Shown: piece by piece, positions 167 to 4,859 of the stretch
How the letters are laid out: every line of letters starts with the position of its first letter
Numbering within the stretch: the stretch's first letter is position 1
Origin: a virus
Taxonomy: Duplodnaviria; Heunggongvirae; Uroviricota; Caudoviricetes
Reading direction: 5' to 3' (one strand)
Virus record (IMG/VR): IMGVR_UViG_2778261069_000001
Length of the DNA: 6,317 nt
Notes under the pieces: model-generated
Seen by the model: the letters and a program-made list of their open reading frames with translations, nothing else
What the model was told of the DNA's origin: nothing
Database searches by the model: none
Made by a program: the position numbers and the translations under genes

Positions 167-1040
167 CTTCGGCAGAGGTAACTTTGCCGAACAGGAGCGT
201 AATGTGGCAGATCTCGATGATGGTTACGCCAGACTATCAAATATGCTGCTTGAGGCCTATTCAGGCGCAGATCTGACCAAGCGACAGTTTAAAGTGCTGC
301 TTGCCATTCTGCGTAAAACCTATGGGTGGAATAAACCAATGGACAGAATCACCGATTCTCAACTTAGCGAGATTACAAAGTTACCTGTCAAACGGTGCAA
401 TGAAGCCAAGTTAGAACTCGTCAGAATGAATATTATCAAGCAGCAAGGCGGCATGTTTGGACCAAATAAAAACATCTCAGAATGGTGTATCCCTCAAAAC
501 GAGGGAAAATCCCCTAAAACGAGGGATAAAACATCCCTCAAATTGGGGGATTGCTATCCCTCAAAACAGGGGGACACAAAAGACACTATTACAAAAGAAA
601 AAAGAAAAGATTATTCGTCAGAGAATTCTGGCGAATCCTCTGACCAGCCAGAAAACGACCTTTCTGTGGTGAAACCGGATGCTGCAATTCAGAGCGGCAG
701 CAAGTGGGGGACAGCAGAAGACCTGACCGCCGCAGAGTGGATGTTTGATATGGTGAAGACCATCGCCCCATCAGCCAGAAAACCGAATTTTGCAGGGTGG
801 GCTAACGATATCCGCCTGATGCGTGAACGTGACGGACGTAACCACCGCGACATGTGCGTGCTGTTCCGCTGGGCATGCCAGGACAACTTCTGGTCCGGTA
901 ACGTGCTTAGCCCGGCCAAACTCCGCGACAAGTGGACCCAGCTCGAAATCAACCGTAACAAGCAACAGGCAGTCGTGACAGCCAGCAAACCAAAACTCGA
1001 CCTGACAAACACAGACTGGATTTACGGGGTGGATCTATGA
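141..1040 (+). CDS. O: Replication initiator protein O (lambda O type)
   Basis: 299-aa ORF whose translation (MTNTAKILNFGRGNFA...TDWIYGVDL) matches lambda O as I recall it. AGGAG RBS at 131-135. The ori iterons lie inside the gene, as in lambda. The stop overlaps the P start (ATGA). Confidence 0.96.
   Translation: MTNTAKILNFGRGNFAEQERNVADLDDGYARLSNMLLEAYSGADLTKRQFKVLLAILRKTYGWNKPMDRITDSQLSEITKLPVKRCNEAKLELVRMNIIKQQGGMFGPNKNISEWCIPQNEGKSPKTRDKTSLKLGDCYPSKQGDTKDTITKEKRKDYSSENSGESSDQPENDLSVVKPDAAIQSGSKWGTAEDLTAAEWMFDMVKTIAPSARKPNFAGWANDIRLMRERDGRNHRDMCVLFRWACQDNFWSGNVLSPAKLRDKWTQLEINRNKQQAVVTASKPKLDLTNTDWIYGVDL
489..623 (+). repeat. ori-lambda-type replication origin: four ~18-19 bp iterons (489-574), each an ATCCCTCAAAACGAGGGA-like inverted-symmetry O-binding site, followed by an AT-rich unwinding region (575-623)
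   Basis: Four tandem copies are visible directly: atccctcaaaacgagggaa / tcccctaaaacgaggga / atccctcaaattggggga / tatccctcaaaacaggggga, then cacaaaagacactattacaaaagaaaaaagaaaagattattcg. This corresponds to the KSPKTRDKTSLKLGDCYPSKQGD stretch of O. Confidence 0.9.
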
Positions 1041-1738
1041 AAAACATCGCCGCACAGATGGTTAATTTTGACCGTGAGCAGATGCGTCGGATCGCCAACA
1101 ACATGCCGGAACAGTACGACGAAAAGCCGCAGGTACAGCAGGTAGCGCAGATCATCAACGGTGTGTTCAGCCAGTTACTGGCAACTTTCCCGGCGAGCCT
1201 GGCTAACCGTGACCAGAACGAACTGAACGAAATCCGCCGCCAGTGGGTTCTGGCTTTCCGGGAAAACGGGATCACCACAATGGAACAGGTTAACGCAGGA
1301 ATGCGCGTAGCCCGTCGGCAGAATCGACCATTTCTGCCATCACCCGGGCAGTTTGTTGCATGGTGCCGGGAAGAAGCATCCGTTATCGCCGGACTGCCAA
1401 ACGTCAGCGAGCTGGTTGATATGGTTTACGAGTATTGCCGGAAGCGTGGCCTGTATCCGGATGCGGAGTCTTATCCGTGGAAATCAAACGCGCACTACTG
1501 GCTGGTTACCAACCTGTATCAGAACATGCGGGCCAATGCGCTTACTGATGCGGAATTACGCCGTAAGGCCGCAGATGAGCTTGTCCATATGACTGCGAGA
1601 ATTAACCGTGGTGAGGCGATCCCTGAACCAGTAAAACAACTTCCTGTCATGGGCGGCAGACCTCTAAATCGTGCACAGGCTCTGGCGAAGATCGCAGAAA
1701 TCAAAGCTAAGTTCGGACTGAAAGGAGCAAGTGTATGA
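1037..1738 (+). CDS. P: Replication protein P (DnaB helicase loader, lambda P type)
   Basis: 233-aa ORF MKNIAAQMVNFDREQMRRIANNMPEQYDEK...KFGLKGASV matches lambda P in sequence and length. ATGA overlap with O upstream and with ren downstream. Confidence 0.96.
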   Translation: MKNIAAQMVNFDREQMRRIANNMPEQYDEKPQVQQVAQIINGVFSQLLATFPASLANRDQNELNEIRRQWVLAFRENGITTMEQVNAGMRVARRQNRPFLPSPGQFVAWCREEASVIAGLPNVSELVDMVYEYCRKRGLYPDAESYPWKSNAHYWLVTNLYQNMRANALTDAELRRKAADELVHMTARINRGEAIPEPVKQLPVMGGRPLNRAQALAKIAEIKAKFGLKGASV

Positions 1739-2025
1739 CGGGCAAAGAGGCAATTATTCATTACCTGGGGACGCATAATAGCTTCTGTGCGCCGGACGTT
1801 GCCGCGCTAACAGGCGCAACCGTAACCAGCATAAATCAGGCCGCGGCTAAAATGGCACGGGCAGGTCTTCTGGTTATCGAAGGTAAGGTCTGGCGAACGG
1901 TGTATTACCGGTTTGCTACCAGGGAAGAACGGGAAGGAAAGATGAGCACGAACCTGATTTTTAAGGAGTGTCGCCAGAGTGCAGCGATGAAACGGGTATT
2001 GGCGGTATATGGAGTTAAAAGATGA
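1735..2025 (+). CDS. ren: Ren protein (Rex exclusion relief)
   Basis: 96-aa ORF MTGKEAIIHYLGTHNSFCAPDVAALTGATV... matches lambda Ren. Position immediately after P is as in lambda. Confidence 0.93.
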   Translation: MTGKEAIIHYLGTHNSFCAPDVAALTGATVTSINQAAAKMARAGLLVIEGKVWRTVYYRFATREEREGKMSTNLIFKECRQSAAMKRVLAVYGVKR

Positions 2026-2050
2026 CCATCTACATCACTGAGCTAATAAC

Positions 2051-2082
2051 AGGCCTGCTGGTAATCGCAGGCCTTTTTATTT
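2051..2082 (+). terminator. Rho-independent terminator, lambda tR2 equivalent, between ren and ninB
   Basis: Perfect 8-bp GC-rich stem (AGGCCTGC 2051-2058 / GCAGGCCT 2067-2074) with an 8-nt loop, followed by TTTTTATTT. Location matches lambda tR2. Confidence 0.8.
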
Positions 2083-2098
2083 GGGGGAGAGGGAAGTC

Positions 2099-3063: not shown

Positions 3064-3242
3064 GGCGACAGCGACGAAGTATCACCGACATAATCTGCGA
3101 AAACTGCAAATACCTTCCAACGAAACGCTCCAGAAATAAACGCAAGCCAATCCCAAAAGAATCTGACGTAAAAACCTTCAACTACACGGCTCACCTGTGG
3201 GATATCCGGTGGCTAAGACATCGTGCGAGGAAAACAAGGTGA
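3060..3242 (+). CDS. ninE: NinE
   Basis: 60-aa protein from ATG 3060 ([29 protein letters not shown]...RARKTR) matches lambda NinE in sequence and length. ATGA overlap with the methyltransferase stop. Confidence 0.88.
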
Positions 3243-3409
3243 TTGACCAAAATCGAAGTTACGAACAAGAAAGCGTCGAGCGAGCTTTAACGTGCGCTAA
3301 CTGCGGTCAGAAGCTGCATGTGCTGGAAGTTCACGTGTGTGAGCACTGCTGCGCAGAACTGATGAGCGATCCGAATAGCTCGATGCACGAGGAAGAAGAC
3401 GATGGCTAA
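3239..3409 (+). CDS. ninF: NinF (small Cys-rich protein)
   Basis: 56-aa protein from GTG 3239 ([38 protein letters not shown]...), overlapping the ninE stop as GTGA. Length matches lambda ninF. The alternative ATG at 3197 would overlap ninE by 46 nt. The GTG start is inferred. Confidence 0.78.
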
Positions 3410-4013
3410 ACCAGCGCGAAGACGATGTAAAAACGATGAATGTCGAGAATGGTTTCATCCTGCATTCGCTAATCAGTGGTGGTGCTCTCCAGAGTGTGGA
3501 ACCAAGATAGCACTCGAACGACGAAATAAAGAACGCGAAAAAGCGGAAAAAGCAGCAGAGAAGAAACGACGACGAGAGGAGCAGAAACAGAAAGATAAAC
3601 TTAAGATTCGAAAACTCGCCTTAAAGCCCCGCAGTTACTGGATTAAACAAGCCCAACAAGCCGTAAACGCCTTCATCAGAGAAAGAGACCGCGACTTACC
3701 ATGTATCTCGTGCGGAACGCTCACGTCTGCTCAGTGGGATGCCGGACATTACCGGACAACTGCTGCGGCACCTCAACTCCGATTTGATGAACGCAATATT
3801 CACAAGCAATGCGTGGTGTGCAACCAGCACAAAAGCGGAAATCTCGTTCCGTATCGAGTCGAACTGATTAACCGCATCGGGCAGGAAGCAGTAGACGAAA
3901 TCGAATCAAACCATAGCCGCCATCGCTGGACTGTCGAAGAGTGCAAGGCGATCAAGGCAGAGTACCAACAGAAACTCAAAGACCTGCGAAATAGCAGAAG
4001 TGAGGCCGCATGA
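3402..4013 (+). CDS. ninG: NinG / Rap (recombination-associated structure-specific endonuclease)
   Basis: 203-aa [35 protein letters not shown]... with Cys clusters and a lysine/glutamate-rich linker matches lambda NinG (Rap). Start overlaps the ninF stop. Confidence 0.94.
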
Positions 4014-4216
4014 CGTTCTCAGTAAAAACCATTCCAGACATGCTCGTTGAAGCATACGGAAACCAGACAGAAGTAGCACGCAGACTGAAATGTAGTCGCG
4101 GTACGGTCAGAAAATACGTTGATGATAAAGACGGGAAAATGCACGCCATCGTCAACGACGTTCTCATGGTTCATCGCGGATGGAGTGAAAGAGATGTGCT
4201 ATTACGAAAGAATTGA
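4010..4216 (+). CDS. ninH: NinH (small Fis-like helix-turn-helix protein)
   Basis: 68-aa [40 protein letters not shown]... matches lambda NinH. ATGA overlap with the ninG stop. Confidence 0.92.
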
Positions 4217-4859
4217 TGGCAGCAAATACCGAAATATTTGGGTAGCTGGCGACCTGCACGGATGCTACACGAACCTGATGAACAAACTGGATACGATTGG
4301 ATTCGATAACAAAAAAGACCTGCTTATCTCGGTGGGCGATTTGGTTGATCGCGGTACAGAGAACGTTGAATGTCTGGAATTAATCACATTCCCCTGGTTC
4401 AGAGTTGTACGTGGAAACCATGAGCAAATGATGATTGATGGCTTATCAGAGCGTGGAAACGTCAATCACTGGCTGATTAATGGCGGTGGCTGGTTCTTTA
4501 ATCTCGATTACGACAAAGAAATTCTGGCTAAAGCTCTTGCCCATAAAGCAGAAGAACTTCCGTTAATCATCGAACTGGTGAGCAAAGGTAAAAAATATGT
4601 CATCTGCCACGCCGATTATCCTTGTGACGAATACGAATTTGGAAAGCCAGTTGATCATCAGCAGGTAATCTGGAACCGCGAACGAATCAGCAACTCACAA
4701 GACGGGATCGTGAAAGAAATTAAAGGCGCGGACACGTTCATCTTTGGTCATACGCCAGCAGTGAAACCACTCAAGTTTGCCAACCAGATGTATATCGATA
4801 CTGGCGCAGTGTTCTGCGGAAACCTCACATTGATTCAGGTACAGGGAGAAGGCGCATGA
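4194..4859 (+). CDS. ninI: NinI, lambda-type Ser/Thr protein phosphatase (PPP family, lambda orf221)
   Basis: Translation from ATG 4194 ([25 protein letters not shown]...) is 221 aa and carries the PPP-family signature motifs GDLHG, GDLVDRG and RGNHE. The 23-nt overlap with ninH is the same as I recall for lambda. The track's longer ORF from 4119 would overlap ninH almost completely. Confidence 0.94.

Follow-up and report, generated by a model that had tools for sequence, protein, structure and literature searches.

Overlapping genes from O to Q in a lambda-like prophage, and the coincidence of their junctions with mosaic seams

In the virus record IMGVR_UViG_2778261069_000001 (IMG/VR), a stretch of 6,317 nucleotides (nt) that is called the window below, bases 141-5479 belong to a lambda-like prophage, of whose early rightward (pR) operon they form the distal part. 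Here, the genes O, P and ren, the nin genes, and Q follow one another without a gap, each gene overlapping the one before it. The overlaps very probably do double duty in this packed operon, serving as the seams at which cassettes are joined and presumably allowing the transcript to be translated continuously. The pattern of overlap exceeds chance, yet it is of course inherited; lambda has the same junctions.

Overlaps and seams from O to Q

Eleven co-directional genes, all on the plus strand, emerge from the listing of open reading frames (ORFs) and from direct reading of the sequence. Their order is O-P-ren-(ninA)-ninB-MTase-ninE-ninF-ninG-ninH-ninI-Q, where MTase denotes a DNA methyltransferase gene and ninA is a twelfth, smaller frame discussed below. 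Stop and start codons overlap as ATGA at 1037 (O/P), 1735 (P/ren), 2536 (ninB/MTase), 3060 (MTase/ninE), 4010 (ninG/ninH), and 4856 (ninI/Q), and as GTGA at 3239 (ninE/ninF). Longer overlaps join ninF to ninG (8 nt) and ninH to ninI (23 nt). All of these had been recorded in the initial annotation, and every one was recovered at the same coordinates. The sole break among the listed genes is a 73-nt gap between ren and ninB.

That gap is spanned by ninA, which had been missed. Its ATG overlaps the ren stop codon (ATGA, 2022-2025), and its own stop codon overlaps the ninB start (ATGA, 2099-2102). The earlier description of the chain as unbroken is thereby literally correct from O to Q, with nine 4-nt overlaps once both ninA junctions are counted. 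The part from ninA to Q holds six of these (five ATGA and one GTGA) together with the 8-nt and 23-nt overlaps, and the ren/ninA junction upstream is also an ATGA. All 13 related loci compared keep the ninA frame open, at 25-30 codons, despite differing neighbours. The frame appears in the annotation of phage 434 as "similar to lambda Orf26," in that of SfI as NinA-like, and in that of HK620 as ninA. This gene should be annotated here as well. Its ORF encloses the terminator tR2, which lies between ren and ninB, and whose homologue is annotated both in 434, as a terminator, and in HK620, under the name tR2. The ninA product is hydrophobic.

The start codons used here agree with the lambda annotation. 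Those of MTase and ninI are pinned in addition by the points at which homology to phages with other upstream genes sets in; comparative evidence thus fixes the starts of MTase, ninF, and ninI. With these starts, nine of the ten pairs of listed genes overlap, whereas about 15% of co-directional pairs do so in typical prokaryotic genomes (PMC6728339; binomial p = 3e-7). Within lambda itself, 4-nt overlaps occur at 7 of 11 pairs between O and Q and at 8 of 51 pairs elsewhere (Fisher p = 0.0025). Further, an overlap is re-formed when neighbours change, as in ninG-ATGA-ninI, ninB-ATGA-ninE, and MTase-ATGA-ninC. All 12 starts, that of ninA included, have a Shine-Dalgarno (SD) sequence lying within the 3' end of the upstream gene. 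The energy of pairing between SD and anti-SD averages -7.4 kcal/mol at these starts (range -5.9 to -10.8), against a mean of -2.3 at other ATG and GTG triplets (permutation p < 5e-5).

The junctions are also places where relatives of this operon begin and cease to resemble it. The clearest view of this comes from MTase, which lies between ninB and ninE, where lambda has ninC and ninD, and which has an ATGA at both of its ends. Its product is predicted to be a Dam-type N6-adenine DNA methyltransferase. The match to PF05869 scores 216 bits against a cut-off of 28.1 and extends from position 1 to position 167 of the 169 in the profile. Residues 68-71, encoded at window 2737-2748, read NPPY and fit the (D/N)PPY catalytic motif. 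A full-length MTase at 95-98% identity is found in 244 phage records. A compositional signature was sought in the cassette and none was found, its GC content (0.515) being like that of its neighbours.

Compared with lambda, the window is homologous up to 2539, where the ninB/MTase ATGA ends, and again from 3067, 7 nt into ninE, whose start reads GTGGCGAGA within ninD in lambda and ATGAGGCGA here. Salmonella phage Oslo has the arrangement ninB-ATGA-MTase-ATGA-ninC, and stays homologous up to precisely 3063, where the second ATGA closes. Phage Dewey, with another gene upstream and a GTG start, is homologous from 2537, within the MTase start codon. P27 has an HNH endonuclease gene upstream of MTase, yet has the 27 nt before the ATG in common with the window; in Shiga toxin (Stx) phages with a different ninB allele just 7 nt before that ATG are in common. 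Phages 2B8 and phi458 are without MTase, and in these ninB is joined to ninE through one ATGA. The seams in lambda (2539), Oslo (3063), and Dewey (2537) uphold the earlier statement that the cassette is fitted by an ATGA at either end. They support, at nucleotide resolution, the view that MTase behaves as a cassette bounded by overlaps, one that is both common and precisely delimited. A separate suggestion, that the C-terminal tail of MTase is that of an HK620-type ninB, was rejected; what the two have in common is confined to the SD (CAGGAGG) and the ninE start.

A second cassette is found in ninH, of which bases 4014-4202 are present in some relatives and absent from others. It is missing from 434, 2B8, MEI003, phi458, and JLK-2012, which have ninG-ATGA-ninI instead. 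In phages without ninH, homology is lost after 4013 and regained at 4203, and therefore their NinI begins MNIY rather than MCYY.

Breakpoints were mapped by aligning the window with 15 related loci by local BLAST. This gave 25 distinct breakpoints, of which 24 were used. The other, at 128/129, was dropped from the statistics as the boundary of an insertion sequence (IS); an IS3-family element ends there, and the idea of a mosaic joint of the immunity region was rejected on that account. Eight of the 24 non-homologous breakpoints lie no more than 3 nt from a junction, 14 no more than 10 nt, and 16 no more than 15 nt, where 8.4% would be expected within that last distance (p = 2e-12). Several fall exactly on a boundary (2539, 3063, 2537, 4013, 3402/3404, and 4858). 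Many others fall 7-27 nt upstream of a start (2509, 2529/2530, 3045, 3052, and 4845), and a seam placed there lets the downstream gene retain its ribosome-binding site, while the upstream protein gains a foreign tail. Two more lie a few codons into the downstream gene (3067 and 4203). Across 424 phage records, endpoints recur at 2529/30, 3045, 3066/7, 3137, 3233, 3247, 3404, and 3421.

Some junctions also have a sequence in common. The 10-nt GGCNGCATGA has exactly three copies in the window, each of them at a junction, where about 0.05 exact matches would be expected. MTase is flanked by a direct repeat matching at 10 of 11 positions (GGGCTGCATGA and GGGCGGCATGA), and in 2B8 and phi458 the joint between ninB and ninE reads like a crossover within this repeat, the 2B8 joint being chimeric there. 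The motif is found as well at lambda ninB/ninC, ninC/ninD, ninG/ninH, and bet/exo, at Oslo MTase/ninC, and at 434 ninG/ninI; it is absent from eight other lambda ATGA junctions, namely those of late and ea genes, exo/orf60a, O/P, and P/ren. The motif stands at the ends of genes, and NinB, NinC, MTase, NinG, and Bet consequently all end in Ala-Ala. To speculate from the C-terminal degrons of the ssrA type, this common tail might alter the turnover of these proteins. It is conceivable, if rather improbable, that the recurring (G)GCNGCATGA is a portable linker, offering microhomology by which whole ORFs are inserted or deleted as cassettes, for example by annealing of the Red type.

Alternative readings of the packing and of the seams

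The operation proposed for this operon is as follows. Each start codon overlaps the preceding stop codon and has its own SD inside the 3' end of the upstream gene. Ribosomes ending one gene would reinitiate on the next, with direct loading contributing as well, and a long transcript would in this way be translated continuously down to the essential gene Q. The overlap junctions very probably serve also as the seams of lambdoid mosaicism, the nonessential nin genes being exchanged as whole-ORF cassettes with each seam at the overlap or just upstream of the ribosome-binding site of the downstream gene. Translational coupling at the overlaps is plausible by analogy, given the 4-nt overlaps and the embedded SDs. 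Among native E. coli pairs with 4-nt overlaps, four of five are coupled by termination-reinitiation and one is not (Huber et al., 2019, PMC6728339). No direct test of coupling in the nin region was found in the literature.

Several observations weigh against this proposal, the first of them concerning translation. A good SD at every start makes independent initiation possible, of course, and the NinA start does work alone, being active and "not weak" in isolation in a reporter plasmid (PMC4824070). The predicted accessibility of the RNA differs only marginally between starts (0.41) and control positions (0.48; p = 0.056). With SDs this strong and a difference this small, the "tight" coupling of the initial annotation is to be taken as hypothetical. 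One might go further and hold that the overlaps are mainly a matter of compaction, or a mutational by-product, with each gene translated independently from its own SD and no coupling obligatory. The strong SDs at 12 of 12 starts and the isolated NinA start would fit such a view, as would bioBF, the one pair of the five in E. coli that initiates de novo (PMC6728339). We nonetheless judge it unlikely, as 4-nt overlaps are enriched between O and Q relative to the rest of lambda, an overlap is re-formed whenever neighbours change, and the start regions are not more accessible than the controls.

A different question is what such a chain might have been selected for. Ribosomes that cover the transcript would block the loading of Rho and damp tR2, and the chain may owe its persistence mainly to selection against transcriptional polarity rather than to any required stoichiometry of nin products. 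Rho-dependent terminators are reportedly present in the nin region (Cheng et al., 1995, as cited in PMC8022706 and PMC10695390). The nin genes are dispensable, yet roadblocks within them are polar on the essential gene Q (PMC10695390), and tR2 lies inside the translated ninA. Here the evidence cuts both ways, as translation from the NinA start did lower tR2 efficiency in a reporter, but by only about 10% (PMC4824070). Further, N antitermination already suppresses the nin terminators in lambda, and in the window the IS element parts O from pR, so the operon may not be expressed normally. Selection against polarity as the main cause is thus somewhat less probable than not.

As for the seams, the observations that weigh against the proposal come from the same breakpoint map. 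The 15 loci were picked by their similarity to the window and are not phylogenetically independent, and the p-values are therefore indicative only. Four breakpoints are intragenic and leave truncated genes: 3137 in ninE (from 933W-type Stx phages), 3267 in ninF, 4038 in ninH (from SfI), and 4926 in Q (from 434). There are also clusters of substitutions within P (1561-1598, 10 in 38 nt) and within ninB (2233-2257, 8 in 25 nt). These patches distinguish allele types, of which different relatives carry different versions and combinations, and homologous exchange therefore does break within coding sequence. Remnants of the truncated genes can be seen in the relatives: lambda-type Q in 434 (5047-5136 of locus L001), ninH in SfI (6385-6441 of locus L013), and ninE in ST2-8624 (about 2029-2102 of locus L007). 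Each remnant ends at an intragenic breakpoint (4926, 4038, and 3137, respectively), and they look like fossils of imprecise joins.

The initial annotation had placed the exchange points exactly at gene boundaries and had named, as the way to check this, an alignment with lambda and other lambdoid nin regions. That alignment, now made, divides the claim. Seams are enriched at boundaries, as the MTase and ninH cassettes and the 16 of 24 breakpoints near junctions make evident. The strong form, in which every exchange point lies at a boundary, fails at the four intragenic breaks and at the patches in P and ninB.

Alternatively, the junction sequence may have no mechanistic role at all, and the boundary seams may be simply what selection retained as functional among the products of random illegitimate recombination. 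We give this nearly an even chance. Breakpoints scatter over about 30 nt around the junctions, and intragenic breaks with truncated remnants of ninE, ninH, and Q are to be expected of random joins under weak selection or none; illegitimate recombination has, indeed, been proposed for lambdoid mosaics (PMC2327257; PMC5630979). Random joining does less well with three copies of GGCNGCATGA confined to junctions where 0.05 would be expected, with the direct repeat around MTase, and with the ninB|ninE joint of 2B8 and phi458 that resembles a crossover within that repeat. Short conserved sequences at the flanks and boundaries of genes have also been invoked for recombination by Clark et al. (2001), as cited in PMC2327257. 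How mosaic joints form, by random joining followed by selection or by recombination at short linkers, is an old question, and the motif gives it a small point of attack that can be tested.

Gene content and edges of the window

The features of the window are collected in Table 1. Matches to the Pfam families of O, P, NinB, Dam, NinE, NinF, NinG, NinH, and the metallophosphatase (NinI) all lie far over the curated cut-offs. The location between O/P and Q on one strand, the nin homologues, the ATGA overlaps, and tR2 are all found here, and they place these genes in the lambdoid ninR gene chain. At 666 nt (221 amino acids), ninI has the length and position of the annotated serine/threonine phosphatase NinI of lambda. 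Within O, at about 489-573, lie iterons of the lambda ori type, three by a simple pattern, where four are annotated at the homologous positions of lambda.

Table 1. Features of the window
Feature	Position	Strand	Evidence
IS3-family insertion sequence, terminal part	1-127	-	orfA start 72-70; terminal inverted repeat 103-127
O, replication initiator	141-1040	+	Pfam Phage_rep_O E = 5.6e-36; ~98% identity to lambda O
P, helicase loader	1037-1738	+	Pfam Phage_lambda_P E = 5e-62
ren	1735-2025	+	matches ren annotation of lambda and 434
ninA, 26 codons, MTIYITELITGLLVIAGLFIWGRGKS	2022-2102	+	ORF annotated in 434, SfI, HK620
tR2, intrinsic terminator (hairpin 2051-2074, then T tract)	2051-2084	+	terminator scan, RNA fold; annotated in relatives
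ninB (orf), recombination mediator	2099-2539	+	Pfam NinB E = 1e-54
MTase, predicted Dam-family N6-adenine DNA methyltransferase	2536-3063	+	Pfam Dam PF05869 E = 3e-64
ninE	3060-3242	+	Pfam NinE E = 8e-44
ninF, GTG start	3239-3409	+	Pfam; same start as lambda annotation
ninG (rap), junction endonuclease	3402-4013	+	Pfam NinG E = 2e-91
ninH	4010-4216	+	Pfam Phage_NinH E = 2e-44
ninI, lambda Ser/Thr phosphatase	4194-4859	+	Pfam Metallophos; ~97% DNA identity to lambda
Q, late-gene antiterminator	4856-5479	+	~97% identity to lambda Q
pR'-like late promoter, TTGACT-17-TAAATT	5522-5550	+	promoter scan; HK140 record: homologous site PR'/qut
Junction motif GGCNGCATGA, three copies	2530-2539 (ninB/MTase), 3054-3063 (MTase/ninE), 4004-4013 (ninG/ninH)		

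Outside the MTase segment and the region after Q, the DNA of the window is about 98% identical to that of phage lambda. Phages 434 and 2B8 are its closest relatives, together with several E. coli prophages; in all, about 4,900 E. coli genomes match. A search of complete E. coli genomes found no identical copy, the best covering 95% of the window at 97.8% identity; E. coli Z1323CEC0010 is 99.6% identical across 2529-6317. An Rfam scan of the whole window returned no family at threshold.

At the left edge, bases 1-127 match, at 98.4% identity and with the inverted repeat included, one end of an IS3-family transposase element annotated in E. coli RM13516, and the minus strand here translates as MTKNTRFSPEVRQRAVRMVLESQS. 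The element may be IS629. Inserted 13 nt upstream of the O start, it sets the left edge of the chain without being part of it. It parts the genes O to Q from cII and pR; when coordinates are carried over from the 434 record, it is seen to interrupt the oop RNA region (about 55-141) as well. This copy of the operon is thus cut off from its promoter region, and the prophage may therefore be defective.

At the right edge, homology to lambda ends at 5567, and from 5598 the sequence matches 434 and 2B8. The stretch 5480-6317 has a low GC content (0.375) and holds an ORF for a multi-pass membrane protein that begins at 5732 or 5759 and runs off the window. In related records this ORF is entered as a putative membrane protein or a hypothetical protein, and is followed by a DUF3927 protein (TciB in 434). 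In Stx phages the same moron position is taken by stx.

Comparison with known systems

The stop/start chain of the lambda nin region is textbook material that dates back to 1982, and mosaicism at gene boundaries in lambdoid phages has been recognized since about 2000. The account given here matters little, then, beyond correct annotation. The lambda ninR region, a "chain of interlinked genes" (Kröger and Hobom, 1982), together with O-P-ren, agrees with the window in its genes and their order, at about 98% nucleotide identity. PMC8022706 credits that same paper (Gene 20:25) with the observation that nin genes are packed by ATGA overlaps in all lambdoid phages. Lambda has the same ATGA or GTGA at O/P, P/ren, ninE/ninF, ninG/ninH, and ninI/Q, the same 23-nt overlap of ninH and ninI, and the same bridge of ninA and tR2.

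The differences from lambda are few. MTase replaces ninC and ninD, and as a result lambda's 34-nt ninD/ninE overlap is gone and the ninE start has changed from GTG to ATG. The overlap of ninF and ninG is 8 nt here and 11 nt as annotated in lambda and 434, because a synonymous GAT>GAC change in ninF (in 3399-3409) abolishes the first of lambda's two tandem ninG ATGs. The sequence departs from lambda from 5567 on, and an IS3-family element stands upstream of O.

Phage 434 (OL657226) and the related prophages of E. coli MEI003 and Z1323CEC0010 have the same series ninB-MTase-ninE-ninF-ninG, with identical ATGA junctions, and the 434 group has the same membrane-protein gene after the late promoter. 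Of these, 434 and MEI003 differ in being without ninH, with ninG-ATGA-ninI and a NinI of the MNIY type. Further, 434 has a truncated lambda-type Q (broken at window 4926) and a separate gene for a Q82-like antiterminator further downstream. Z1323CEC0010 does have ninH; its ninB is a different allele, and it carries one more gene upstream.

The termination-reinitiation system of Huber et al. (2019, PMC6728339) has the same 4-nt overlap, with the SD inside the upstream ORF. There, dependence of the downstream gene was demonstrated for four of five pairs; at the nin-region junctions it is a prediction, and the 8-nt and 23-nt overlaps found here fit simple reinitiation less well.

Lambdoid mosaicism with seams at gene boundaries was described by Juhala et al. 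(2000) and Clark et al. (2001), as cited in PMC2327257 and PMC5630979. Each phage carries about ten nin genes, drawn from a pool of 30-50 (PMC5630979). The operon described here has the same abrupt transitions from identity to nonidentity at its junctions and draws on the same common pool of nin cassettes. From that mosaicism it does not differ in kind; it adds one more combination, that of MTase, ninH, a lambda-type Q, and a post-Q region of the 434 type.

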